Positions 5,077-57,453 of a DNA stretch of 64,000 nucleotides are shown here, piece by piece. The translations under genes and the position numbers were made by a program. Below the pieces are notes generated by a model. The model searched no databases. It was not told where the DNA came from and saw only the letters and a list, made by a program, of their open reading frames with translations. This DNA is from Nannocystis pusilla (GTDB lineage Bacteria > Myxococcota_A > Polyangia > Nannocystales > Nannocystaceae): NCBI RefSeq assembly GCF_020073745.1, contig NZ_JAIRAU010000047.1, forward strand, positions 285,990 through 349,989, given 5' to 3'. Within the stretch, counting starts at the first letter, position 1. Each line of letters begins with the position of its first letter.

Positions 5077-6720
5077 GTGCGCCGCGATCTTCGTCCTGTC
5101 CTGTCCCTCGCCGTCGCGTTCCTCGGCGCCGCCGTCTCACCTGCGGCCGCCGCCCAGAGCCCGCCCGCGCCGCCGACCACCTCGCAACCGACCGCCTCGA
5201 CGCCGCCGGTCACCCCGGAACCGACTGAAGCTGTCCCTGCGGACAGCCCGACCGAGGTCGCCACCGAGCCTGAGCCCGCGCCCGACGGGCCCGACGAGGC
5301 CACCCCGCGCGAGGCCCCGCCGCCCGCGCCCGTGCCCGAGCCGGCCGTCAAGCCGGACAAGAAGCCGGCCGCCAGGGGCCCGCACCCGCACGATCCCAAC
5401 AGCCCCCCGGGCCTCGCCGACGGCTTCCACTTCGGCTCCTACGGCCGCGTCATCGCCGGCGGGGACGCGGCAGGTCGGGCCGGGCGCAACGGCGACATCG
5501 TCGCCCGCGGCTCGCGGCTCGACGAGGCCAACTACGCCGAGCTCGAGCTGCGGCGCGAGGACTACTGGAAGTCGACCGGCGCCTACACGCGGATCGTCGC
5601 CACGACCGCCTTCGCCAACCCGATCTTCCACTACAACGGCCAGTTCGCCGCCGCGCTGGCGATCCGCAACCTCTACCTCGAGGTCCGCAACGCCGGCCTC
5701 AAGGGCCTGTCCTTTTGGGCAGGTGCCCGCATGTACCGCGGCGACGACATCTACCTGCTCGACTTCTGGCCGCTCGACAACCTCAACACCGTCGGCGGCG
5801 GCGTCGGTTACACCTTCAAGACCGGCACCGAGCTCAAGTTCCACGCCGGCCTCAATCAGCCGACCGATCCGTACTATCGCCAGACCATCCTGCGCCCGCC
5901 CACCTACAATCAATTCGGGCAGGCCGAGGTCGCGATCCTCGATCGCCAGAAGCTGGTCAGCAGCGTCAAGCTCAGCCACGTCTGGCCGATCGGCGCCAGC
6001 GGCGGCGTCAAGGGCATCCTCTACGGCGAGCTGCACTACGTGCCCGAGGGCCAGCGCGAGGTCGAGAACAAGGTCTACGAGCAGGTCCCGAAGGACAAGG
6101 GCTTCGTCGGCGGCGCCCAGATCAGCGCCTTCACCGGCAAGCGCAGCACCTACGTCAACCTCACCGCGCGCTTCGCCTCCGGCCTGGCCGCCTACGGCGA
6201 GCTCAACGCGCCCCGGCAGCTGCGGCCCGATCGCCTGACCACCGGCGCCTACGAGATGCTCGTCACCCTCAGCGGCAACTGGGAGCGCGGCCCGTTCGGC
6301 CTGCTCATGGGCTCGTATTATCGCCAGTTCCGCAACGCCAGCCGCACGCTCGACTGGGACGACCTCAACGAGGGCATCGTCATCGTCCGCCCGCAGGTGT
6401 GGTTCGCCAAGATCGCCGGCGTCGCGCTCGAGGCCTCGTATCAGGCCCAGCAGCGCGGCGTCGCCACCGAGGCCGAGCCCGACCTGTTCAAGCCCGTGTT
6501 CGCCCAGATGGGCCGCTTCGGCTTGATCCCCTTCATCACCCCGGGCGGCCCCGGCGCGTTCCAGCGCCCGCACATCCGCCTGATCTACCTCCTCACCGTG
6601 CGCGACGCCGCCGCGCGCTCGTTCTACCCGGCCGACGACAAGTTCGCCCGCCGCGGCGTCGACCATTTCATCGGCGTCGGCGCCGAATGGTGGTTCGGCT
6701 CGACCAGTTATTTCCGCTGA
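5077..6720 (+). CDS. putative secreted/outer-membrane beta-barrel protein (possible maltodextrin porin)
   Basis: 547 aa. Signal peptide 'LSLAVAFLGAAVSPAAAAQ', a Pro-rich linker, then alternating amphipathic beta-strand-like segments with an aromatic-rich C-terminus. It is embedded in the amylase/mal transporter locus. Confidence 0.45.
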   Translation: MRRDLRPVLSLAVAFLGAAVSPAAAAQSPPAPPTTSQPTASTPPVTPEPTEAVPADSPTEVATEPEPAPDGPDEATPREAPPPAPVPEPAVKPDKKPAARGPHPHDPNSPPGLADGFHFGSYGRVIAGGDAAGRAGRNGDIVARGSRLDEANYAELELRREDYWKSTGAYTRIVATTAFANPIFHYNGQFAAALAIRNLYLEVRNAGLKGLSFWAGARMYRGDDIYLLDFWPLDNLNTVGGGVGYTFKTGTELKFHAGLNQPTDPYYRQTILRPPTYNQFGQAEVAILDRQKLVSSVKLSHVWPIGASGGVKGILYGELHYVPEGQREVENKVYEQVPKDKGFVGGAQISAFTGKRSTYVNLTARFASGLAAYGELNAPRQLRPDRLTTGAYEMLVTLSGNWERGPFGLLMGSYYRQFRNASRTLDWDDLNEGIVIVRPQVWFAKIAGVALEASYQAQQRGVATEAEPDLFKPVFAQMGRFGLIPFITPGGPGAFQRPHIRLIYLLTVRDAAARSFYPADDKFARRGVDHFIGVGAEWWFGSTSYFR

Positions 6721-15655: not shown

Positions 15656-17944
15656 TTGCACCGCTCGCGCACGATTTTGCTATCGTCGTCTGCCGTGCCC
15701 GAGACGGAGCTCTCAGAGGCCGCGCGAGGTTCGCCCCCCGACCCCGCCGCGGCGACAGGCCGTGCGACCTCGACGCGGCCGACCGGCGCGCACCGGATCG
15801 CCAGCGCCGAGGTGACCGGCTTCTTCGACGCGCTGCCGCACGGCACCGTGTTGATGCGGCTGTGGGCCCGCTTCGGCCTGCTCATGGGCCAGCAGCTGGC
15901 CCGGGTCGTGCGCGACGACCACGTGTTCCTGATCGTCATGGCCGCGGTCGTCGGCACCACCAGCGGGATCGCGGCCGGCGCGTTGCTGGCGTGGATCGAC
16001 TACGCCTTCCGCCTGTTCCCGCGGCCCGAGGAGAGCAGCGCGCTGGTCCGCTGGGCCGCGGTCATCGGCGTCCCGGTGCTCGGCGGGCTCGCGGCCGGCG
16101 GCCTGCACTTCGTGCTGCGGCGGCTCATCCGGCAGCCGCTGGTCCAGAGCATCCCCGCCGTCATCGAGGCCATCGCCCGCAAGCAGGGCGCGATCGGCGG
16201 GCGCCAGGCCGTCATCGCCGGCGTCGGCACCGGCATCACGATCGGCAGCGGCGGCTCGTGCGGGCACGAGGGTCCCAGCGTCGCCATCGGCGCCGCCGTC
16301 GGCAGCGTGATGGCCCGCTTCTTCGGCCTGCGCATGCGCTGGCACCTGGCGATGGTCGGGGCCGGCTGCGCCGGCGGCCTCGCGGCGGCCTTCAACGCCC
16401 CGCTGGCCGGCGTCGTGTTCACCGTCGAGATCGTGTTCGGCGGCGCCATCGGCGGCAACATCGGCACCATGTCGGTGTTCGTGCCGCTGATCGTCGCCGC
16501 GGTCGCCGGCACCTTCACCTCGCACGCGATCCGGGGCGAGCACCTGACCTTCACGACAGTCCAGCACGGCGACGCCATGCTCGCCGAGATGGGCCTATTC
16601 GTCGCCCTGGCCGTGCTCGCCGGGGTGCTCGGCACGCTCATGGGCCGGGCCGTCATCGGCATGACGAAGTGGTTCCAGGCGCTGAAGGCCCCCGTCCTGC
16701 TCAAGCCGGCGCTCGGGGCCCTCGGCGTCGGTGTGCTCGCCGCCGTCGTCTCCAACGACGTCCTCGGCGGCGGCCTCCCGACCATCAACGAGGCGCTGCA
16801 GGGCCACCTCGGCTGGCAGCTCGCGCTCGCGCTGCTCGGCCTCAAGATCGTCGCCACCGCGCTGACCGTCGGCAGCGGCGGCTTCGGCGGCGTGTTCACG
16901 CCCTCGCTGTACATCGGCGCCTGCCTCGGCACCGTCGTCGGCGCGCTCGCCAACTTCGCGCTCGGCCCCGCCGCCGAGTCGACCGCCGCCTACGCGCTCG
17001 TCGGCATGGGGGCGATCTTCGCCGCCACGATGCAGGCCCCGCTGACGCCGATCGTGATGATCTTCGAGCTCACCCGCGACTACCAGCTCATCCTCCCGCT
17101 GATGCTCGGCTGCATCCTCGCGGTGTTCGTGGCCCGCCGCATGTCGCCGCGCAGCCTGTTCCAGGAGGTCCTCCACCAGCAGGGCGTGGTGCTCGGGCAC
17201 GAGGCCGAGGTCGAGGTCATGAAGCGCGGCCACGTCGCCGACCTCATGCGCCCGCCGCCGCGTACTCTGTCCGAAGGGACAGGTGCCGCCGAGGTCCGGC
17301 GCGTCGCCCTCGACGAGGGCCGCTCGCCGTTCGTCGTCGACGACACCGGTGCCGTGGTCGGCTTCATCGACGCCGACCTGCTGGCCAAGCGCGTCCTCCA
17401 CGGCGACGTCCCGGCCGACGCCGCCGCGCGCGACCTCATGTCCGACGTCCAGCTCGCCCTCCTCTACCCGACCGACACCCTCGCCGGCGCGATGCTGGCC
17501 TCGGCGCGCGCCGCCGTCGAGGTCCTGCCGGTCGTCGACCACGAGCACCGGCTCGTCGGCGTCATCCGCCGCGGCGACCTGCTCGCCCACTACAGCGACA
17601 AGGTGCTCGGCCAGCAGGAAGAGGCCGTGCACATGCACACCACCGGCGGCGCCGTCCACGGCCACGAGGTCGGCCTCGGCAAGGGCACGATCCTCGACCA
17701 CATCGTCGTCGGCCGCCGCTGGGCCGGCCGCACCCTCGCCGACCTCGCCCTGCGCTCCCAGACCGGCGCCACCGTGGTCGAGTGGCTGCGCGGCGACGCC
17801 CCGCTGGCGCTCGACCCCAACGCCCCGCTGCAGCACAACGACGTCCTGGCGATCGTCGGCACCCGCGAGCAGATCCTCGCCGCCCGGCGCATGGGCCCGA
17901 CCCACCCCGGCGTGCCTGTCACCCCGCCGCCGATGCGCCCTTGA
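15656..17944 (+). CDS. ClC family voltage-gated chloride channel with C-terminal CBS pair and RCK/TrkA-C domain
   Basis: 762 aa. ClC selectivity motifs 'GSGGSCGHEGP' and 'GGFGGVFTPSLYIGA'. C-terminal CBS-like and TrkA-C-like regions. The start is uncertain. Confidence 0.8.
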   Translation: MHRSRTILLSSSAVPETELSEAARGSPPDPAAATGRATSTRPTGAHRIASAEVTGFFDALPHGTVLMRLWARFGLLMGQQLARVVRDDHVFLIVMAAVVGTTSGIAAGALLAWIDYAFRLFPRPEESSALVRWAAVIGVPVLGGLAAGGLHFVLRRLIRQPLVQSIPAVIEAIARKQGAIGGRQAVIAGVGTGITIGSGGSCGHEGPSVAIGAAVGSVMARFFGLRMRWHLAMVGAGCAGGLAAAFNAPLAGVVFTVEIVFGGAIGGNIGTMSVFVPLIVAAVAGTFTSHAIRGEHLTFTTVQHGDAMLAEMGLFVALAVLAGVLGTLMGRAVIGMTKWFQALKAPVLLKPALGALGVGVLAAVVSNDVLGGGLPTINEALQGHLGWQLALALLGLKIVATALTVGSGGFGGVFTPSLYIGACLGTVVGALANFALGPAAESTAAYALVGMGAIFAATMQAPLTPIVMIFELTRDYQLILPLMLGCILAVFVARRMSPRSLFQEVLHQQGVVLGHEAEVEVMKRGHVADLMRPPPRTLSEGTGAAEVRRVALDEGRSPFVVDDTGAVVGFIDADLLAKRVLHGDVPADAAARDLMSDVQLALLYPTDTLAGAMLASARAAVEVLPVVDHEHRLVGVIRRGDLLAHYSDKVLGQQEEAVHMHTTGGAVHGHEVGLGKGTILDHIVVGRRWAGRTLADLALRSQTGATVVEWLRGDAPLALDPNAPLQHNDVLAIVGTREQILAARRMGPTHPGVPVTPPPMRP

Positions 17945-18290
17945 GGACATGCTCTCCAAAACATGTCCTCCAAAACATTATCGTAAGGACATGTCCTCGA
18001 CGGCCTCCTGCTCGCCCCTCCTTCGGCGCCCAGCGCTGCGCCGCCGGGCCCCCACTGCGCGGAGCGCCGCCTCGCTCGCCGCGCCGGGAAGGACTGGTCC
18101 TGCGCACCGACGCCGGCCGTTTGATGTCCACCATCCTCGTCATTCCCCGCCCGGCTCGAGCCACGCTCTCGCCGCTCGTGACGCCCCGCGACGACCTGTC
18201 CCGCCCGGACAGAGCGCCGCTCGCGTCGCTCTCGTGACCCCCGCGGCGCACCTGCTCCCCCGGGTTCGAGTCCCGCTCGCGTCGCCCGTC

Positions 18291-18806
18291 ATGACGCCTC
18301 GCGGCAAGACGCGCTACCCTCCGCCCGTGCCACACGACCCCCAGGGCTGGATCGACGCGCTTCACCTCGTCCCGCACCCCGAGGGCGGGCACTACCGCGA
18401 GACCTACAGGGCCGGGCTCGCCGTCGAGCGCGACGGCCGGCGGCGCAGCGCCTCGACCGCGATCTACTACCTCCTGCGCCACGGCGAGCGCTCGCGGCTG
18501 CACCGGATCCGCAGCGACGAGCTGTGGCACTTCCACGCCGGCGACGGGCTCCAGGTCCACGTGTTCGACGCGCGCGGCCACGCCGTCCTGCGGCTCGGCC
18601 TCGACCTCGCGGCCGGCGAGGCCCCGCAGCAGTGGGTGGCCGCCGGCGCGTGGTTCGGCGCCGAGGTCGAGCGGCCGGGCGGCTGGGCGCTCGTCGGCTG
18701 CACCGTCGCCCCGGGCTTCGAGTTCGCCGACCTCGAATTCGCCGACCGCGACGCGCTCCTCCGCGCCCACCCGGCCCACGCCGACGTCATCGCCCGCCTC
18801 GCCTGA
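18291..18806 (+). CDS. cupin domain protein (DUF985-like)
   Basis: 171 aa starting at ATG 18291 (MTPRGKTRYPP...). 'HPEGGHYRETY' and 'WHFHAGD' resemble the DUF985 cupin family. Confidence 0.55.
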   Translation: MTPRGKTRYPPPVPHDPQGWIDALHLVPHPEGGHYRETYRAGLAVERDGRRRSASTAIYYLLRHGERSRLHRIRSDELWHFHAGDGLQVHVFDARGHAVLRLGLDLAAGEAPQQWVAAGAWFGAEVERPGGWALVGCTVAPGFEFADLEFADRDALLRAHPAHADVIARLA

Positions 18807-20292: not shown

Positions 20293-22821
20293 ATGATCGG
20301 ATCCCCGGAGCCTGGCGTGCGCAGCGGCTCGCGCCGAACCTCGCAAGCCGGGCCGCGGGCCGGCTGCTCGTGCGAGCTGCTGCTCTCGCTGTGCGCCGCC
20401 GACTCGGTCCAGGGCGTCCTGGCCGCCCACGGCCTCGACGTCGCCCGCCTGCGCGCCGTCGTCGACGAGCTCCACGCCGAGGTCGAGACCGAGCCGGCCG
20501 ACTGGCGCCTGCGGATCACCCAGCGCGGCGGTCGCGCCGCCGACCCCGACCTCGACCTCCTGCTCGCCCTCGTCCGCTCCGCCGACTCGCACGCCTACCA
20601 GCTGCTCGAGCGGGCCGGCGCCGCCTGCGGCGCCCTGCGCAAGCTGCTGATCGACCGCCTGCGCGCGCTCGAGGCCGCCGCGCTCACCGGGACAGGTCCC
20701 TCGCGCCATGTCCCATCCGGCATGTCCTCCGAGACAGCCCTGCCGCGGCGCCCCGTCGTCCAGCGCATGTCGACCATCGGCGCCGCCGGCGAGCGCCCGG
20801 TCCGCCGCTCGCTCGCCGACGCGCGCGCGAGTGACATGTCCCCGCGGACAGGTGCCGGCGACGCCCCGCCCCGCCCCGCCCGCGGCGGCGGCGCCCGCAC
20901 CTGGCCCGAAGGCCAGCCTGCCGCGCGCCCGGCCCGACCGACCGACGTCCGCACCTGGCCCGAAGACCACCCGGCCCGCGCCCGCCTCGACGCCCCCCGC
21001 GCCCGGCCCGAAGACCCGCGCGCGCCGACCCGCGCCCAGCCGCGCCTGCCCGCCCGCCCCGAGCCGGGCCGCGCCTCGGCCCTGGCCCTCAAGCCAGGTC
21101 CAGGCGCCCAGGTCGCGCCGGCCGGCGAGCCCGAGCCGCGCCCGGCCCCCGCGCCCCAGCCCGAGGCCCGCAGCCAGCGCCTGAGCCCGATCGACCCCTC
21201 GGCCCTGCCGCCGCTGCACGGCCGCGAGGGCGAGCTGGCGCGCCTCGCCGACGCCGTCCTGCGCCGCTCGCCGCGCCCGCCGCTGCTCGTCGGCCCGGCC
21301 GGCAGCGGCCGCACGCTGGTCGCCAAGCACCTCGCCGGCCTGCTGCACCAGCCGGTCTTCTACCTGTCCGCGACCCGCTACGAGGACGAGGACGGCCTGC
21401 GCGCCGACCTCGCCGCCGTCGCCAAGCAGGGCGGCGTCGCCATCCTCGACGACCTCGACCGCCTCGGCGGCGACGGCCCGCCGGCGCTGCTCGGCGCCCT
21501 CGCCAAGGCCTGGTCTTCGGGACAGCCGCCGATCGTCGCCGTCGCCTCGCCCGAGGGTCAGGCCCGCCTGTGCGCCTGGGCCCCCGGCCTGGCCGCCGCC
21601 CTCGACCTCGTCACCCTCCAGCCGCTCGAGGGCGACGACCTGCGCGCCGCCGTGGCCGCCGCCGCGCCCGCGGTGCTGGCCCAGCACGGCCTGTCTCTCG
21701 GGTCAGGTAGTCGCCTCGCCGAGCTCGTGCGCCTGTCCGACCGCTTCCTCGCCGGCCTGGCCCAGCCCGGCCGCAGCCTCGACCTGCTCGACCTCGCCTG
21801 CGCCCGCACCGCCCGCGAGGGCCGCGGCGCCGTCCAGCGCGACACCTGGATCGACATCGTCTGCGAGCGCAGCGGCGTCCCGCGCGAGCGCCTCGAGGGC
21901 CAGGGCCACCAGGACATGCTCGAGCTCGAGGCCGAGCTCGCGCGCAAGGTCGTCGGCCACGAGCACGCCCTCGCCGCCGTCGCCCAGCTGATCCGCAGGA
22001 ACCGGGCCGGCTTCGGCTCGCAGCGCCCGATCGCCACCGTCCTCCTGCTCGGGCCCAGCGGCGTCGGCAAGACCGAGATCGCCAAGGCCCTGTGCGGCGC
22101 CCTGTTCGACCGCCCCGACGCGTTCGTCCGCCTCGACATGAGCGAGTACGCCGAGGCCCACGCGGTCGCGCGGATCGTCGGCGCCCCGCCCGGCTACGTC
22201 GGCCACGAGCAGGGCGGCGCGCTGACCGACCCGCTGCTCAAGCAGCCGCACTGCGTCGTCCTCCTCGACGAGATCGAGAAGGCCCACCGCGACGTCCACC
22301 AGCTGCTGCTGCAGGTGTTCGACGAGGGCCGGCTCACCGACGGCCGCGGCCGCACCATCGACTTCCGCCACGCCGCGATCATCATGACCTCGAACCTCGG
22401 CGCCACCTGCCTCGACGCCACCGGCGACGCCCGCCTCGACGAGGCCCGCGTGCTCGAGGCCGCCCGCGCCGCCTTCCCGGTCGAGCTGTGGAACCGCATC
22501 GAGGCCCCGCTGGTGCTCCACCCGCTCGGCGGCGAGCAGCTGGCCCGGATCTGCGCCCGCCTGGTCCGCGCCTCCTCCGACCGCCTGCTGCGCGAGCGCG
22601 GCATCCGCTACCGCCTCACCGAGGCCGCCACCCGCCACGTCGTCTCGCTGTGCGGAAAGGACATGTCCCTTGGGGCACGTCCCTTGCGACATGTCCTTAC
22701 GCGCAGCGTCGAGGCCCTCCTGGCCGACGCGATCCTGCGCGGCCAGATCCGCGCCGGCATGCAGGTCGAGGTCGATCTCGACCACACCGGCGCGCTGTGC
22801 CTGCTGGCCTCGCGCGCCTAG
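20293..22821 (+). CDS. ClpA/ClpB-family AAA+ ATPase with degenerate first nucleotide-binding domain
   Basis: 842 aa. Clp_N-like N-terminus. D1 P-loop is 'GPAGSGRT' (Lys to Arg). D2 is canonical: 'GPSGVGKTE' and 'VVLLDEIEKAH'. A sensor-2 region 'GARPL' is present. A roughly 150-aa Pro/Arg/Ala low-complexity insert lies between the domains. Confidence 0.8.
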   Translation: MIGSPEPGVRSGSRRTSQAGPRAGCSCELLLSLCAADSVQGVLAAHGLDVARLRAVVDELHAEVETEPADWRLRITQRGGRAADPDLDLLLALVRSADSHAYQLLERAGAACGALRKLLIDRLRALEAAALTGTGPSRHVPSGMSSETALPRRPVVQRMSTIGAAGERPVRRSLADARASDMSPRTGAGDAPPRPARGGGARTWPEGQPAARPARPTDVRTWPEDHPARARLDAPRARPEDPRAPTRAQPRLPARPEPGRASALALKPGPGAQVAPAGEPEPRPAPAPQPEARSQRLSPIDPSALPPLHGREGELARLADAVLRRSPRPPLLVGPAGSGRTLVAKHLAGLLHQPVFYLSATRYEDEDGLRADLAAVAKQGGVAILDDLDRLGGDGPPALLGALAKAWSSGQPPIVAVASPEGQARLCAWAPGLAAALDLVTLQPLEGDDLRAAVAAAAPAVLAQHGLSLGSGSRLAELVRLSDRFLAGLAQPGRSLDLLDLACARTAREGRGAVQRDTWIDIVCERSGVPRERLEGQGHQDMLELEAELARKVVGHEHALAAVAQLIRRNRAGFGSQRPIATVLLLGPSGVGKTEIAKALCGALFDRPDAFVRLDMSEYAEAHAVARIVGAPPGYVGHEQGGALTDPLLKQPHCVVLLDEIEKAHRDVHQLLLQVFDEGRLTDGRGRTIDFRHAAIIMTSNLGATCLDATGDARLDEARVLEAARAAFPVELWNRIEAPLVLHPLGGEQLARICARLVRASSDRLLRERGIRYRLTEAATRHVVSLCGKDMSLGARPLRHVLTRSVEALLADAILRGQIRAGMQVEVDLDHTGALCLLASRA

Positions 22822-34617: not shown

Positions 34618-35178
34618 ATGCGCAAGCTCCTTCCGGTCTTCATGGCCCTCGCCTTCTCGCTGCCCGCCTGCTCCTTCTCGTATTCGTCGTCGAGCCGCTC
34701 CGGAACGGCGCCCGGCACCACCGACGGGACGAAGAGCGGCAAGGGCAAGCCGGCGCGCCAGGCCGCGGTCGACACGTCGAGCACACCTGCTCCGGCGCCC
34801 GCTGCCAAGCCCACCCCCAAGCCCGCCCCCGAGCCCGAGCCCGCCGCCACCACTCCCGAGCCCGCGCCGGAGCCGACCGAAGAGCCCACGCCCGGCCGCG
34901 CCACCGATCCCAAGCCGGGCCGCGCCGAGCCCAAGCCGGGCCGCGCCACCGAGCCCGCGTCGGCCCGCCTCGTCGACCCCGCGACCCAGCCCACCCCGCG
35001 TGACGACCCGCAGCAGGCCGGCCTCAGCCTCACCGCCGGCGAGTCCAAGCCCAAGCCCAAGACCAGCACCATCTCCAACGGCGGCGCGGCGCCGAAGGGC
35101 AAGCCCGGCACCCTGACCGGCACCCCCAAGCCGACCGAGCCGCCCAAGCACGAGGCCAAGCTGGCCGCGCCGCAGTGA
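34618..35178 (+). CDS. Pro/Lys/Thr-rich lipoprotein of unknown function
   Basis: 186 aa. Lipobox 'SLPACS'. Low-complexity PAPEP/KPK repeats. Confidence 0.5.
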   Translation: MRKLLPVFMALAFSLPACSFSYSSSSRSGTAPGTTDGTKSGKGKPARQAAVDTSSTPAPAPAAKPTPKPAPEPEPAATTPEPAPEPTEEPTPGRATDPKPGRAEPKPGRATEPASARLVDPATQPTPRDDPQQAGLSLTAGESKPKPKTSTISNGGAAPKGKPGTLTGTPKPTEPPKHEAKLAAPQ

Positions 35179-35298: not shown

Positions 35299-35940
35299 TC
35301 AGGAGCGCGAGCCGGTGCGCGCGTGGGCGCGGCGGCCCGGCACGTCGGCGCGCTGCATCGGCGCCGGCGGCAGCTCGAGCCGCGGGTCGGCGGGCTGGCT
35401 GCGGCGCAGCACGTCGAGCGAGACCTCGTCGAACTCGTCGTCGACGTCGTCCTCCTCGAGGTCCTCGCGCGCGGTGAAGCGGCGGCGGAGGATCAGCGCC
35501 TCGTCGGCCTCGTCGCCGAGCTCCTCCTCGTCGACCTCGTCGAGCTCGGCCGGATCGGCGCACGGCGGCTCGAGCTCGAGCTGGGCCGGGCCGGCGCGCC
35601 GCTTGCGAGCCGCGGGGGCGGACTTGCCGGCCGGGGCGTTGAGGCTCGCACGCAGCTCGACGCCCGGGCGGAAGTCGATCGTGAAGGCCGCGTCGATCGT
35701 CATGGGCTCGAGCGTCCGCGGGTTGACGCCCTTGCGAGCCGAGCGCTTCTTCTTGGTGAAGGTGCCGAAGCCGGGGAACGTGAAGCGCGGGCTCTGGGCC
35801 CGCGTCACCCTCGCCTTGACGAAGTAGGCGGCCATCTCCCCGAACGCGATCTCGAGGATCTGCTGCACGCACTTCTTCGTGATGTCCGGCGGCAGATCAC
35901 GGTTGCGTGCGATTTTTTCGATGAGTTCAGCCTTCGTCAT
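35299..35940 (-). CDS. HU/IHF-family DNA-binding protein with long charged C-terminal extension
   Basis: 213 aa. N-terminal 90 aa match the HU fold ('MTKAELIEKIA', 'GFGTFTKKKRSARKGVNPRT'). The C-terminal 120 aa form an acidic/Ala/Arg-rich tail. Confidence 0.7.
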   Translation of the reverse strand: MTKAELIEKIARNRDLPPDITKKCVQQILEIAFGEMAAYFVKARVTRAQSPRFTFPGFGTFTKKKRSARKGVNPRTLEPMTIDAAFTIDFRPGVELRASLNAPAGKSAPAARKRRAGPAQLELEPPCADPAELDEVDEEELGDEADEALILRRRFTAREDLEEDDVDDEFDEVSLDVLRRSQPADPRLELPPAPMQRADVPGRRAHARTGSRS

Positions 35941-36156
35941 CGCGTCGCCACAGAAACGTGACTGTAGAAGTGGCGACGCGAACCGTCAACTGTACTGCCG
36001 AACAGCATCCGCAGCGGACGTGACGATCATCGCTGAAAACTGGACTACAGAAATTTCACGACGCGGATCGCAAGCGGCGCGCGCGGCCCACTTCTCCACA
36101 GCTCTTCACGCGTGAAAATCCGTCGCGCATCCGGGCATTGCATGTGCATGACGCGA

Positions 36157-37788
36157 TCAACTTCGCAGCACGCGCAGCGCTCGCTCGAGGTCCGACATCA
36201 CCGTGTCGTCGGCCGGATTTCGCTGCCCCGGAGGGAGTTCACCCTCGCGTCGGATCACGTACGACGGATGATACGTGACGTGAAGTGGGATCTGCAGGCC
36301 TGCACCCGGGTCGTCGTAGGTCCAACGACGGTTGCGCATCTGTGCCAACTTCAGATCCTGATCGGTGCCGGTCAGCAACATCCCCGCGTGCCGGCCGAGC
36401 GCCACGATCACCGCGGGACGGATCGCCCGGATCTGGGCGCGCAGGAACGGCGAGCACTTCTCGATCTCGTCGGCGGCCGGTTCGCGGTTGCCGGGCGGCC
36501 GGCACTTCAGCACGTTGGCGATGTAGACCTGCTCGCGCTTCATGCCCAGGCGCTCGATCCACTGCGTCAGCCGCCGGCCGGCAGCGCCGACGAACGGCTC
36601 GCCGCGCCGATCTTCGTCCGCGCCGGGCGCCTCGCCGATGAACATCACCCGCGCGTCGGGGTCGCCGACGCCGAATACAATGTTCGTGCGGGTCTTCGAG
36701 AGCTTGCAGCGGGTGCAGTCGCCGACGTTACGGGCCCGCAAGTACTCGAGCTTCTGCGCCGGCGTCCACGCCTGAGCCTGCGCGCGTAGCGAGGCATCGC
36801 CGGCCGGGCGCGGCGCGCCCTCGGCCGCACGCGGCGGTGCCCCCTGATCCGCCAGCGGCAGGCTGACCGTCCGGGGCCGCGGCGACGGCTCCGCGGGCTG
36901 CTGGTGGACCGTGCGAGCGCGCGGCGGCTCCGCGGGCGCGCGCGAACGCGGTGCATCTTGCGGCGGCGGCTCCCAGTCTGCAGGGCCCCGCTGCGTGCGC
37001 CCTCGCGTCGTCTCCTGCGGCGACGACTCGCGGTCTGCATGGCCCCGCTGCGCGCGCCCTCGCGTCGTCTCCTGCGACGACGCCTCCCGGTCTGCAGGGC
37101 CCGGCTGCGCGCGCCCTCGCGTCGGCTCGTGCGGCGACGGCTCCCGGTGTGCAGGGCCGGGCTGCGCGCGCCCGCGTGTCGTCTCCTGCTGCGACGACTC
37201 CCAGTCTCCGGAGCCCGACTGCGCGCGCCCGCGTGTCGTCTCCTGCGGCGGCCACGGCTCCCAGTCTCCGGGGTCCGGCTGCGCGCGCTCTCGCGTCGTC
37301 TCCTGCGGCGACGGCTCCCAGTCATCCGGGCCCGGCTGCGCTCGACCGCGTGGCGTCTCTTGCGGCAGCGACGGCTCCCAGTCCTCGGGGCCCGGCTGCG
37401 CGCGCCCTCGCGTCGTCTCCTGCGACGGCTCCCAGTCCGCCGGGCCCGGCTGCGCGCGCCCTCGCTTCGTCTCCTGCGGCGGCGGCCCCGAGGCCGCGCC
37501 CGGCTGTGTGCGCGCTCGCGGCTCGGGATCGCGGGCGGATCTGGCCTGGTCTTCGGGCCATGTCGGCGCGCGCGCCCCCGCGGCGGTGCGCTCGGTCGCC
37601 TGTCCGGACGGCCAGGTGCTGTCCGGCGCCGGCGATCGCTCCTCGGGCGCGGAGATCGGCGCGCTCGCGCGACGCGGAGAGGCCGCGGCGGACACGTACG
37701 CCAGACCGCGGAACTCCCGGAGGTGACGCAGGTGGGCGGCGAACTGAACCGCCAGCCGCCGGGTCGCGTCGCGTCGATCGCCTTCCAC
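36157..37788 (-). CDS. family-4 uracil-DNA glycosylase with N-terminal tandem-repeat extension
   Basis: The C-terminal 200 aa carry UDG-4 motifs: '[20 protein letters not shown]', '[13 protein letters not shown]', 'HPSYVIR', and a 4Fe-4S Cys cluster 'CTRCKL'. The N-terminal 330 aa form an in-frame Pro/Arg-rich repeat tract. The start codon is uncertain. Confidence 0.65.
36960..37500. repeat. about 9 tandem copies of a roughly 57-60 bp repeat (19-20 aa unit '[19 protein letters not shown]') inside the UDG N-terminal extension
   Basis: Direct reading: 'ggctcccagtc[tc]...gggcccggctgcgcgcgccctcgcgtcgtctcctgcg' recurs head-to-tail. The peptide repeat is visible in the ORF translation. Confidence 0.8.
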
Positions 37789-37802
37789 CGCGAGATCCTC
37801 CG

Positions 37803-39108
37803 TCAGTTCGTCGCCGCCAGCGCGTCGAGCAGCCAGGCCGCCAGCGCCGCCTTGGCGATCGGCGGGCCCGACGCGCGCACGGCGATCGCGTCGCCGTCGC
37901 GCGCCAGCAACAGGCCGGCGTTGGTCGCCGACGCGAAGCCGACCCCGGGCGCGCCGACGCGGTTGACGAAGATCGCGTCGGCGCCCTTGGCCCGCAGCTT
38001 GGCCGAGCCGAGCCGGATCAGCTCCTGCTGCAACCTGTCCTCGGGGCCATCCTCGACCGTCTGCGCGGCGAACCCGAGGAAGCGCGAGCGCGGGGCGCCC
38101 GGCGCCGCGCCGCGGCCGAAGCGGACCGTGAGCGCGGCGAGGATGTCGGGCGCGGCCCGCCAGGCGAGCGTCGGCAGCGTCGCCAGCAGCTCGGCCTTCT
38201 CGAGCTTGCGCGCGGCGCCGCCGTCGATCTCGAGGTCTTGCACCGCCGCGACCATGGCCACCCAGTCACATGGCCCTTGAGACAGCTCGTTCTCCAGCGC
38301 CGCCTGCATCTCGGCCGCGGTCTCGACGTCGACGCGGCGCACCCCCGCCGGCGTGGCCAGCTCGACCGGTCCGGCCACCAGCGTCACCGCGGCGCCGGCG
38401 CGCTGGGCCGCCTCGGCCAGCGCGAAGCCCATCGCCCCGGTCGACGCGTTGGTGACGAAGCGGACCGGATCGATGTACGTGCGCGTCGGCCCGGCCGACA
38501 CCAGCACGCGCTTGCCCGCCCACGGCCCGCGGCCGACGCCGAGCCGCGCCAGCGCGGCGGCGACGATCAGCGGCGGGTCGATCATGCGGCCCTCGCCGAT
38601 CCACCCGCACGCCAGCTGCCCGCGATCGGGCCCGACGAACTCGGCCCCGCGGGCGCGCAGTGTCGCCAGGTTGTCCTGCGTGGCCGGGTGGCGCCACATG
38701 TTCGTGTTCATCGCCGGCGCCCACAGCACCGGCGCGCGCGTGGCCAGCAGCACCGTCGCGGCGAGGTCGTTCGCCAGGCCGTGGGTCGCGCGCGCCAGCA
38801 GGTCGGCGGTGGCCGGCGCGACGACCACCAGGTCGGGCCAGTCGGCGAGCTCGATGTGGCCGACGTGGCCCTCCTCCTCCGGGTCGAGCAGGCGCGTGCG
38901 CACCGGCCGGGTCGACACCGTCGCCAGCGACAGCGCGCTGACGAACGCCTCCGCCGCCGGCGTCATCACCACCTGGACCTCGCAACCGGCGGCGACGAAC
39001 GCCCGCACCAATTCCGGCGCCTTGTAGGCCGCGATCCCGCCGCTGACGATCAGCAGGACGCGACGGCCCCGCGGACGTGTCCCATGGGACATGTCCGTGG
39101 CACCAGCC

Positions 39109-39116
<8 letters not shown>
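37803..39116 (-). CDS. coaBC: bifunctional phosphopantothenoylcysteine decarboxylase/phosphopantothenate-cysteine ligase CoaBC
   Basis: 437 aa. Flavoprotein N-terminus '[20 protein letters not shown]' and 'PAMNTNMW'. C-terminal CoaB ligase domain. An alternative start at the ATG inside a palindromic unit at about 39092 would remove the overlap with ribBA. Confidence 0.85.
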
Positions 39117-53405: not shown

Positions 53406-55142
<1,737 letters not shown>

Positions 55143-55340
55143 GGTCCTCGGGTCTAAGATTCGCGGGCCGCCCACGCACGCATGGGCGAACCAGCGGAGT
55201 CGACGTAGCGTTTCGGATCGCGAGCGATCGATCAAGCGTGCAAGTCCGCGACGCGCGTCGTCGTGCCAACGAATTTCACCCGCGAAAACACCGACGCGGG
55301 CCGCCCCGGCCGGAGCGACCCGCGCGTCATGCCACATCAC

Positions 55341-57086
55341 TCACATCGGCTGGATGCCGCAATCGTCGACCTCGTTCGGAATGCAACCCTCGCAATCCCA
55401 CCGGAAGTTGTCGAGCAGCGCGACCGTGGTCAGGTATTGATCGGACATGTCGGCCAAGAAGAAGCCGATCGTGATCTCGGCACCCGGCTGCACACCGCCC
55501 TTGGCGGTGAACCAGTCGGTGCAGGCGTGCTGCTCGAAGCCCGTGCCCTGCAGCTGCGGCTCGGCGAAGGTGTAGCCGGGGCCGTCGTAGTACGGGTCGA
55601 GCGCCGTGATCGTCAGCGGCAGGCCGCTGGCCGGATTGTTCGGGTCGGGGATGAAGGTGACGTTGCCGCTGTACGGGTCGACCGGGGGCATCGCGTTCGG
55701 GTTGTCGGGCGTCGGATCGACCTGATAGGCGATCAGCAGGTCGTTGTACGAAGAACCGACCCACGTCGGCCACTCCGCCGAGCAGAACACGAAGTCGAAG
55801 GTGTAGCCGAACGTGCCCGCCGGCACCTTCGTATTGAAGGTGAAGTAGATGCGGTCGTTGGCGTTGCCGTTGGTCATCGCCCACTGGGCCTGGAGCGTGT
55901 CCGAGCAGTCGCGGTCGCCGTTCGGCACGCCGTTGTCGCAGTTCTTGAAGGGCGTGCCGCCGGCGCCGTTGTTGCTGCCGTTCTGGTTGTTGAACGGCGC
56001 CGGCAGGACGCCGCCGTCGGGGTTGAAGTTGTCGTCGTGCGTCTGCGAATTCGCCGGCTCGACGACGACGCCCTGGCCGTTCGGCGGGGTGATCGTGCCC
56101 GTCGACAGCATCAGGAAGGCCGCGCCCTCGCGCGGGCTGTAGAGCAGCTGCGGCGGCGTATTCGCGTCCATGTCGTGGTCGTAGGTGTACGTGCCGAAGC
56201 CCTTCGCCACCTGCCACGAATTGTCGACCGCCTGCGAGAACTGGAAGTTGCTCGTCATGATCGAGTCGGCCGGGGTGCTGTTGCAGATGCCGATCGCCTT
56301 GAGCGCGTTGTTCTTGTCGGCCTTGTTGCTGATCACGTCGGGCGCGTCGTCGCACACGACATAGTTGGCCGGGGCCTGACAGCTGGCCGGGAAGTAGGTG
56401 GTGCAATTGTTGAGGCAGAAGTCGCCGGGGCCGCCGTCGACCGTGTTGCCGTCGTCGCACTCCTCGCCGGCCTCCTTGATGCCGTTGCCGCAATCGGCCG
56501 GCGAGAACGTGCAGTCGGGCTCGCAGCCGTCGCCGGGGACCACGTTGCCGTCGTCACACTGCTCGGGGCGCTCGACCGTGCCGTTGCCGCAGTCCTGCAG
56601 CGGCGTGGCCGTCTGGCAGTCGGCGCTGCACTCGTCGCCGTCCTCGGTGTTGCCGTCGTCACACGCCTCGCCGGCCTCGACGTTGTTGTTGCCGCAAACG
56701 GCCGTGATCGTGCACGTCGGCTCACAGCCGTCGCCCGCGACGTCGTTGCCGTCGTCGCACTCCTCGCTGCCCTCCTGAACGCCGTTCCCGCAGTCCGGCA
56801 CGCCCTCCGTCACGCCCTCCGTCTCGGCCGCCGTGGCCGTCCCCTCCGTCGTGCCCTGCGTGGCGCTGTCGCTCACGCCCGTGGTCGGCGTGCCCGTCGT
56901 CGGCTGCGAGGTCTCGGTCGCCGAGTCGCCGCCCGCGGTCGCGTCGACCGTGGCTTGTGAGGCGGTGTCGCCCTCGGTCTGACCGTCGGACGCGCTCGAA
57001 AGTTTGCCGCCGTCGTCGCCGCACGCGGCGAGCGCCGAGGCGAGAAAGCCGGCCGTAAGGATTCGAAAAGTCGGTCGAGTCATCAT
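55341..57086 (-). CDS. myxobacterial Cys-rich repeat lipoprotein, paralog 2
   Basis: About 581 aa from ATG 57086 (MMTRPTFRILTAGFLASALAACG). Same architecture as paralog 1. Confidence 0.7.
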   Translation of the reverse strand: MMTRPTFRILTAGFLASALAACGDDGGKLSSASDGQTEGDTASQATVDATAGGDSATETSQPTTGTPTTGVSDSATQGTTEGTATAAETEGVTEGVPDCGNGVQEGSEECDDGNDVAGDGCEPTCTITAVCGNNNVEAGEACDDGNTEDGDECSADCQTATPLQDCGNGTVERPEQCDDGNVVPGDGCEPDCTFSPADCGNGIKEAGEECDDGNTVDGGPGDFCLNNCTTYFPASCQAPANYVVCDDAPDVISNKADKNNALKAIGICNSTPADSIMTSNFQFSQAVDNSWQVAKGFGTYTYDHDMDANTPPQLLYSPREGAAFLMLSTGTITPPNGQGVVVEPANSQTHDDNFNPDGGVLPAPFNNQNGSNNGAGGTPFKNCDNGVPNGDRDCSDTLQAQWAMTNGNANDRIYFTFNTKVPAGTFGYTFDFVFCSAEWPTWVGSSYNDLLIAYQVDPTPDNPNAMPPVDPYSGNVTFIPDPNNPASGLPLTITALDPYYDGPGYTFAEPQLQGTGFEQHACTDWFTAKGGVQPGAEITIGFFLADMSDQYLTTVALLDNFRWDCEGCIPNEVDDCGIQPM

Positions 57087-57453
57087 GGTCGTGTCCTGTA
57101 TGCGAAGCATGTGGGCCGTCCTCGAATGCATGGCGGTCCCGCCTTGATTCCTCATGATTCATGAGTGATCAAGGCCGGTGCCTCGCGCAGCGGTCCGCAG
57201 GCCTCATTGGTGAATCTGCAGCCTCGACCGCGCGAGACCGTCGTTCCGGCGCAGGAAGCACGCGATTCGTCGTCGCTGCCGATGGTGATCCACCGCAAGC
57301 TGTCGAGCTCGCTGGAAGACCACGGGTAGACGTCACATTTGTTCGACTCGCGCGATTCGACGCAACATCACACCATCGATTCCGCCCGCTCGAGACGCGA
57401 CGAGGCGCGCACGTCGCCGTGCGCGCCGCGTCACTCGTACCTCGAGCCGTCGA

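Follow-up and report, generated by a model that had tools for sequence, protein, structure and literature searches.

The locus discussed here raises the question of how a small DNA-repair enzyme comes to be preceded, in frame, by a long repetitive tract, and whether that tract is part of the protein at all. It lies in a 64,000-nucleotide stretch of the Nannocystis pusilla genome (contig NZ_JAIRAU010000047.1, positions 285,990 to 349,989 of the forward strand), referred to below as the window, and the gene in question is udg, which encodes a family-4 uracil-DNA glycosylase (UDG). At full length, udg occupies 36157..37788 on the minus strand and consists of 543 codons plus a stop, with a GTG start; this extent follows from the list of open reading frames (ORFs), the Pfam and NCBIfam matches, and the orthologous full-length ORFs in the loci of three Nannocystis genomes (L081, L082 and L083, the last being N. 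bainbridge). From sequence comparison and structure prediction, the gene probably encodes a single 543-residue protein in which a conserved anchor helix is followed by a disordered tether of ~290 residues, holding a translated minisatellite, and then by a canonical family-4 domain. The finding is a variant, particular to this lineage, of a known enzyme family.

The C-terminal part of the protein is readily classified. Pfam family UDG (PF03167) matches residues 372-517 with an E value of 1e-36 (126.6 bits, cut-off 24.3), and the NCBIfam model of family-4 enzymes, TIGR00758 (UDG_fam4), scores 190.4 bits, above its cut-off of 125.3, so that the family named in the initial annotation of this DNA stands. 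Two related models stay below their cut-offs, namely the UdgX model TIGR03914 (132.6 bits, cut-off 189.95) and the archaeal type-4 UDG equivalog NF040953 (194 bits, cut-off 250), and among PDB matches UdgX is weaker (E 1e-23) than family 4 (E 1e-37 to 1e-41). As delimited by hidden Markov models, alignment, AlphaFold2 (AF2) and Foldseek, the catalytic domain covers residues 335-543 (36160..36786, minus strand). Its features are two lead-in helices at 330-352, the cysteines 358, 361, 429 and 445, the sequence GEAPG at 385-389 and the sequence HPSY at 507-510, which conform to motif A (GE[AG]PG) and motif B (HP[SA]) of the family. In an alignment of 21 sequences G385, E386, A387, P388, G389, H507 and P508 are invariant. 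So are C358, C361, C429 and C445, which align with cysteines of TM0511 and the S. tokodaii UDG and which, to judge from crystal structures of such enzymes, are presumably the ligands of a [4Fe-4S] cluster. AF2 predicts the UDG alpha/beta fold, with a predicted local distance difference test (pLDDT) score of ~80-96 in the domain. Foldseek returns target-normalised template modelling (TM) scores of 0.89 to 1L9G/1VK2 from T. maritima (E ~1e-17) and of 0.80-0.86 to 4ZBX/4ZBY/1UI0/1UI1. Between the window and its relatives Nannocystis sp. SCPEA4 and N. radixulma, the ratio of nonsynonymous to synonymous substitution rates (dN/dS) in this domain is 0.19-0.22, and the 543-codon frame is intact. By sequence and predicted fold, then, the protein is a canonical family-4 UDG, and it is predicted to excise uracil. 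The GC content of the window drops to 0.57-0.66 at 35850-36450, and the GC content at third codon positions (GC3) of the last ~90 udg codons is 0.70-0.84, as compared with 0.94-0.96 in neighbouring genes.

Where translation begins has been answered in many ways by public gene models. One and the same gene has been modelled at seven lengths (174, 194, 357, 371, 415, 450 and 478 aa). N. pusilla itself has two models, WP_263430064.1 (194 aa) and MBZ5714364.1 (174 aa), each of which matches the C-terminal part of the window protein at 100% identity. For the ortholog, lengths of 371 aa (N. radixulma), 357 aa (N. bainbridge) and 415, 450 or 478 aa (SCPEA4) are on record. The conserved start after coaBC, the gene immediately upstream, is used by just one of all these models, the 478-aa GenBank entry from SCPEA4. 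In the window, the Shine-Dalgarno (SD) sequence GGAGGA (37796..37801, minus strand) stands 7 nt before GTG 37788 and directly after the coaBC TGA (37803-37805). This GGAGGA-N7-GTG layout is identical in all three Nannocystis loci, and four metagenomic relatives (L084, L085, L087 and L088) show a 4-nt overlap between the udg start and the coaBC stop. Other starts are scarce: between codons 1 and 360 the in-frame ATG, GTG or TTG codons number three (codons 1, 32 and 350), and neither codon 32 nor codon 350 has an SD upstream, so the earlier suggestion that translation could initiate at several positions was overstated. The TTG at codon 350 (36739..36741, minus strand), with which the RefSeq 194-aa model of N. 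pusilla begins, lies inside a conserved helix. The invariant residues W341, K346, L347 and Y349 are found upstream of it, and a start at this codon would therefore delete two predicted helices that contain them.

The sequence between the two ends of the gene also behaves as coding DNA. Five indels separate the window from SCPEA4 and N. radixulma (84, 129, 3, 3 and 12 nt), all of them multiples of 3 and two of them not multiples of the 57-bp repeat unit. Differences across residues 41-334 favour the third codon position, with counts of [13,4,23] and [15,6,25] by codon position in the two comparisons, and dN/dS across the same residues is 0.35-0.40. Among the repeat units of the window, dN/dS is 0.49 in frame vs 1.0-1.08 in shifted frames. 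On this comparative evidence, we take the repeat tract to be translated as part of one 543-residue protein that starts at GTG 37788. The 174- and 194-aa models of N. pusilla would accordingly be truncated, the supported start being the one directly downstream of the coaBC stop, and this settles a real annotation conflict.

The repeats themselves were described by Tandem Repeats Finder as 9.2 copies of a 57-bp period with 83% matches (36959-37486). The score of this array, 659, is the highest in the window (runner-up 294), and a 29-mer of the unit has 8 matches vs 0.00 expected. The array parses into nine units, each 54-60 bp (18-20 aa) long, at residues 105-276 (36961..37476, minus strand), with lengths in order of 18/20/19/20/19/19/19/19/19 aa, and a degenerate tenth unit at residues 277-295 (36904..36960, minus strand). 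The units of 54, 57 or 60 nt are all multiples of 3 and lie head to tail within the ORF. Much of what the initial annotation said of this region holds: about nine in-frame repeats of 19-20 aa ahead of the catalytic domain, a period of about 57-60 bp, and an extension of about 330 residues (~334 by our count). It did not hold that the extension consists of repeats throughout, for these make up ~172-190 of its residues, or about half, nor that the copies are nearly identical, since their mean pairwise identity is 84.5%. The label Pro/Arg-rich is correct as far as it goes (P 17%, R 14%), but with A 14%, E 9% and a net charge of 0 the extension is better called a Pro/Ala/Arg-rich polyampholyte. 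A tryptophan is kept in 6 of the 9 units and changed to arginine in the other three.

Nor is the array very recent; a recent origin had been proposed. It is common to three species-level genomes, and orthologous units are ~95% identical between strains (14 differences in 303 nt) whereas paralogous units are ~84% identical, which makes the array older than the strain split. Several searches with the repeat came back empty: Pfam has no family that matches the tract, a metagenome scan for a 27-mer of the unit gave 0 matches, and a protein query with the tract alone found no match at E <= 0.01. Known homologs do contain the tract; composition filtering is the probable cause of this last result, which is no sign of uniqueness. 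Expansion driven by hairpins was considered and dropped because three units folded as single-stranded DNA are no stabler than shuffled sequences (z -0.46). With a unit that is a multiple of 3, an ORF that appears to be translated, and a copy number that varies between genomes, the array is best described as an in-frame coding minisatellite.

Ahead of the repeats lie two further segments. Residues 1-40 (37669..37788, minus strand) form a clade-specific module, a basic amphipathic helix, that was recognised from homolog patterns, dN/dS and AF2. Among the best 120 homologs of the window protein, to which all homolog counts below refer, the module is present in nearly all; a loose pattern matches 74/120 and a second pattern 87/120. 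Compared with SCPEA4 its dN/dS is 0.13, and compared with N. bainbridge it is 0.05 (dS 0.64). A profile of the module matched 11 cluster representatives among 1.84 billion, and most of the listed matches are proteins of this UDG clade or fragments of them, a narrow set which marks the module as clade-specific and unannotated. The module is followed by a non-repetitive Pro/Ala-rich linker at residues 41-104 (37477..37668, minus strand; dN/dS 0.41), which is disordered by its pLDDT of <50. In the AF2 model, which was run with the 21-sequence alignment, residues 2-25 are helical (pLDDT 81-85), residues 29-317 are unstructured (pLDDT <50), and the UDG fold begins at about residue 330. Of the two options first offered for the tract, an intrinsically disordered N-terminal region is the one that the prediction favours. 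A post-repeat linker (36787..36903, minus strand), defined by alignment, leads to the catalytic domain and contains the island SLPLAD at residues 309-314 (36847-36864, minus strand), ~25 aa before that domain; the pattern [PV][RSH]LP[VLI]A occurs in 45/120 homologs. The island bears a faint likeness to Hda-type clamp-binding hexapeptides. We do not put it forward as one, given that its first position is not Q and its second varies.

Characterised family-4 enzymes are compact. T. maritima TM0511 (1L9G/1VK2), T. thermophilus UDGA (1UI0) and the S. tokodaii enzyme (4ZBX) share the catalytic domain of the window protein at 38% identity and TM scores of 0.80-0.89, yet they are 190-205 aa long and start a few residues before the CxxC motif, which in the window protein is preceded by 357 residues. 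The norm of about 200 aa assumed at the outset is therefore sound for characterised enzymes. As a contrast that sets this gene apart it fails, because the best homologs, which are proteins of Nannocystis and other Nannocystaceae, all (120/120) have 102-264 residues before CxxC. The long tail is thus a trait of the clade, with the window gene as its extreme, and what is specific to this gene is the tandem array and the record length, not the long extension as such. Copy number does differ among strains, a comparison for which the first annotation had called: nine units are present here vs ~5.5, including partial units, in SCPEA4 and N. radixulma. The array aligns as an insertion relative to the close relatives P0002 and P0003, neither of which has it. 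In N. bainbridge (L083:4581-6074) the corresponding place in the linker is taken by four copies of a 15-aa unit, ADRSREPQRPASPPP, that is unrelated to the one in the window; the udg ORF of this species is open from the coaBC stop and would encode ~497 aa vs the annotated 357. The linker expansion in N. bainbridge is an independent one.

How such a protein might be made and used can be outlined as follows. Translation would be coupled to the end of coaBC, start at GTG 37788 and yield first the basic amphipathic helix of ~40 residues, a part found only in UDGs of the Nannocystaceae type. A Pro/Ala/Arg-rich, intrinsically disordered tether of ~290 residues would then join this helix to the [4Fe-4S] family-4 domain. 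The array within the tether may arise and change by slippage or unequal recombination. Since the unit is 19 codons long, gain or loss of a unit keeps the frame, and such changes would alter only the length of the tether, a disordered segment that may well tolerate them; the repeat sequence itself would be weakly constrained. By analogy with the tails of eukaryotic UNG/TDG and archaeal family-4 enzymes, the helix may serve as a docking or recruitment module, with the tether setting its reach.

Not every observation favours this protein-level account. The RefSeq annotators chose the short models (174 and 194 aa) for N. pusilla. The inter-strain dN/dS of the repeats, 0.32-0.35, is based on 14-17 substitutions; GC3 inside the repeat cannot pick out the frame (0.85, 0.80 and 0.70, with equal antisense values); and 5/6 frames across the repeat lack a stop codon, as one would expect with a GC content of 80%. 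The AF2 run, whose output holds no inter-domain confidence, does not separate a docked helix from a free anchor. One rival reading, which takes up the 5' leader named at first, has the tract as a non-coding leader or an intergenic minisatellite and a compact enzyme of ~194 aa made from the TTG at codon 350. The two short database models would fit this, as would the 190-205 aa of characterised enzymes and the ease with which frames stay open at such GC. It is contradicted by a protein motif that is conserved upstream of the tract under strong purifying selection. An SD or an overlap with coaBC marks the upstream start, the indels all keep the frame, TTG-350 has no SD and would cost the protein its conserved helices, and the promoter and terminator scan found no site inside the tract (its sole promoter-like match lies upstream of the HU gene). 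We consider a leader highly improbable. Much the same holds for a tract that regulates expression through the structure of its mRNA or DNA, between coaBC and the catalytic region of udg, and is translated incidentally. The linker does hold two copies of a dispersed palindrome that forms hairpins, and GC3 is lower in the tract (0.80-0.92) than in neighbouring genes (0.94-0.96). Against this, three units fold like shuffled sequence, both palindrome copies in udg are degraded (z -0.8 and -1.6), Rfam finds nothing, and the signatures of coding stand; there is little to recommend such a role. Repeats are error-prone in assemblies and the public models disagree, so one may also think of an assembly artefact or a decaying pseudogene. 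The units differ by ~15%, however, and can therefore be placed individually, their order and flanks are the same in two independent genomes, and a frame of 543 codons with a conserved catalytic domain is hardly that of a pseudogene. This last possibility is barely credible.

A different kind of alternative accepts the protein and asks whether the units are functional in themselves. A Trp-centred motif (DWEPS, related to TWPSGQ islands elsewhere in the linker) could make the array a multivalent platform for protein or DNA, with copy number tuning avidity or localisation. This would refine the account of helix, tether and catalytic domain and does not exclude it. Both dN/dS values of the repeats, between strains and among units, are below 1, Trp persists in two-thirds of the units, and islands of the form T-W-P-x-G-Q occur 68 times in 39/120 homologs. 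On the other side, three units have lost the Trp to Arg; SCPEA4 and N. radixulma have 3.5 fewer units, including partial ones, without other change; the array is absent from P0002 and P0003, the repeat of N. bainbridge is unrelated and Pfam has no match; and a palindrome with retained rare codons accounts for the TWPSGQ islands at the level of DNA. We regard functional units as unlikely, and prefer a tether in which length alone would matter.

Parallels to this architecture exist outside the bacteria. Archaeal family-4 UDGs have N- or C-terminal tails that bind PCNA. Eukaryotic UNG2 and TDG carry disordered non-catalytic tails, which bacterial glycosylases usually lack (PMC9266487). The eukaryotic enzymes and the window protein share a layout of short module, disordered tail and catalytic core, although neither the eukaryotic nor the archaeal tails have sequence similarity to the tail in the window, and a minisatellite is found in the latter only. 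A bacterial DNA glycosylase with an anchor motif, a long disordered tail and a catalytic core in the eukaryotic style would offer a tractable system for tail function. As for the array, bacterial in-frame variable number tandem repeats are alike in having a unit that is a multiple of 3, a variable copy number, degenerate edge units and a disordered segment. Coding minisatellites in bacteria are usually reported from surface or secreted proteins, whereas this one lies in a cytoplasmic DNA-repair enzyme; a cytoplasmic housekeeping enzyme, too, can bear a coding minisatellite that is polymorphic in length.

The palindrome mentioned above, CCTGTCC-N4-GGACAGG, is the more unusual item of the two. 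With up to 2 mismatches (<=2), it has 22 copies in the window vs 0.35 +/- 0.58 in shuffled sequences. These copies, of 18 bp each, are at window positions 5230, 5706, 9831, 10788, 10810, 17266, 18912, 20835, 21690, 27966, 28159, 32850, 33330, 35245, 35279, 37599, 39076, 43173, 49350, 49608, 49979 and 59510, and further copies are at 20900 and 37545. With at most one mismatch (<=1), the window has 9 copies and Nannocystis-type loci totalling 48.7 kb have 14, as against 0 in udg loci from other phyla, which amount to 607 kb (147 kb of these with >=66% GC). A perfect copy folds with a z of -4.2. Copies between genes lie mostly just 3' of genes, and those within genes are biased to the first 28% of ORFs. 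No Rfam family was found in the window at gathering thresholds, and a literature search on Nannocystis together with the word palindromic returned nothing relevant. Interpretation as a LexA-type CTGT-N8-ACAG box or a CRP/FNR-type site was rejected as the main reading on account of the density of about 1 per 3 kb, the tandem arrays inside ORFs and the placement 3' of genes.

Within udg, the linker peptide TWPSGQV is an in-frame reading of the palindrome. The copy CCTGTCCGGACGGCCAGG (+ strand, 37599..37616) is read as TWPSGQ at residues 58-63 and has a rare GGA codon, and a degenerate copy (37545..37562) is read as TWPEDQ at residues 76-81 with rare ACA and GAA codons, at a position that is kept in most close homologs. 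Throughout the clade such T-W-P-S/E-G/D-Q islands recur in linkers. The homologs P0021 and P0025 have the perfect form, read as T/A-C-P-E-G-Q (ACC TGT CCT GAA GGA CAG GTC), from which the Trp version differs by a change of TGT to TGG. In the window GGA makes up 2.5% of Gly codons, CCT 4.1% of Pro codons and GAA 7.1% of Glu codons; every instance of the palindrome that is read keeps rare codons, with GGA at each G of the motif, and the loop positions vary, which argues that it is conserved at the nucleotide level. It is read in all three frames, as T[W/C]PxGQV, PVPxDRS and LSxGTG. A descent of the 57-bp unit (GAC TGG GAG CCG TCG CCG CAG) from the palindrome (ACC TGG CCG TCC GGA CAG) was also looked at; by eye ~14 of 21 positions match once one codon is removed, and the resemblance was set aside as too weak.

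Other genes show the same habit. In a Clp-like AAA+ ATPase (AAA_2 + ClpB_D2-small; window 20293-22821, plus strand) the palindrome occurs at 20835, 20900 and 20953, in a linker before the first AAA region, where a 54-bp x 2.4 tandem repeat (20835-21016) encodes RTWPEGQ / RTWPEDH and the third palindrome copy is read as DMSPRTG. The copy at 17266 belongs to a CLC channel and falls at about residue 550, as estimated from the fraction of the ORF, between the Pfam CLC and CBS domains. Two high-GC metagenome contigs, L183 and L105, have giant ORFs with tandem palindrome arrays (L183:1976-2165, L183:4011-4365, L105:4432-4720 and L105:6801) that are translated as AVPEDRS with a 27-nt period, as GLSEGTG or ELSAGTG with a 21-nt period, and as ACPEGQV. 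At window 18146-18305, between the crude gene calls at 17944 and 18807, a 56-bp x 2.5 tandem repeat has a consensus that holds CCTGTCC-CGCCC-GGACAG, apparently a variant of the palindrome with an N5 loop.

The existence of a dispersed, lineage-specific palindrome and its in-frame reading have good support. We put forward more tentatively, as a possibility that falls short of likely, that disordered linkers in Nannocystis are built and lengthened by DNA repeats inside ORFs. These would comprise an undescribed hairpin element of 18-20 bp that is read in three frames (TWPSGQV, PVPEDRS and LSEGTG; in the UDG, the Clp-like ATPase and probably the CLC channel) together with frame-neutral minisatellites, and the Trp peptides may have been exapted as multivalent docking motifs. 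The nearest precedent is given by Rickettsia palindromic elements (RPEs) in frame and by intragenic copies of repetitive extragenic palindromic (REP), enterobacterial repetitive intergenic consensus (ERIC) and miniature inverted-repeat transposable (MITE) elements (PMC10969869). Like RPEs and REP sequences, CCTGTCC-N4-GGACAGG is a dispersed palindrome that lies in frame inside ORFs and adds peptide segments. It is, however, much shorter (18-20 bp vs ~100-150 bp for RPEs), often tandem and read in three frames. If the proposal is true, the Rickettsia elements would have a counterpart in a free-living, high-GC organism, and the element bears on the origin of disordered regions.

Around udg, the gene order nrdR-ribD-ribE-ribBA-coaBC-udg-HU is conserved, with ribD to HU found in L081-L088. 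As first noted, udg lies directly downstream of coaBC (37803..39116, minus strand; Pfam Flavoprotein and DFP) in the same orientation, with a gap of 14 nt, and the arrangement makes coaBC and udg part of an operon-like cluster. In E. coli, dut, which also serves uracil avoidance, is transcribed together with coaBC (dfp), a parallel that is suggestive only. The genes ribBA and coaBC overlap. The start of coaBC (window 39076-39116, minus strand) is ambiguous between the listed TTG 39116 and an ATG at 39092-39090, which lies in an arm of the palindrome copy GACATGTCCCATGGGACACG; in L084 and L085 the palindrome is found 24-33 nt into coaBC. Downstream, an HU-type protein (Bac_DNA_binding, residues 1-101; 35299-35940, minus strand) ends in a tail of ~110 aa that is strongly acidic in its distal part, and its gene comes next after udg in all related loci that extend past udg. 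Convergent with it is an ORF of 186 aa, rich in Pro, Thr and Lys and possibly a lipoprotein (34618-35178, plus strand), with 21/24-bp tandem repeats (EPKPGRA) at 34882-34956; the 120-bp gap between the two genes holds two palindrome copies. Farther away, two adjacent paralogs on the minus strand (53406-55340 and 55341-57158) each contain a 105-bp x 3.2 tandem repeat (54504-54826 and 56445-56775) and match DUF4215, which we take to be a Cys-rich repeat.

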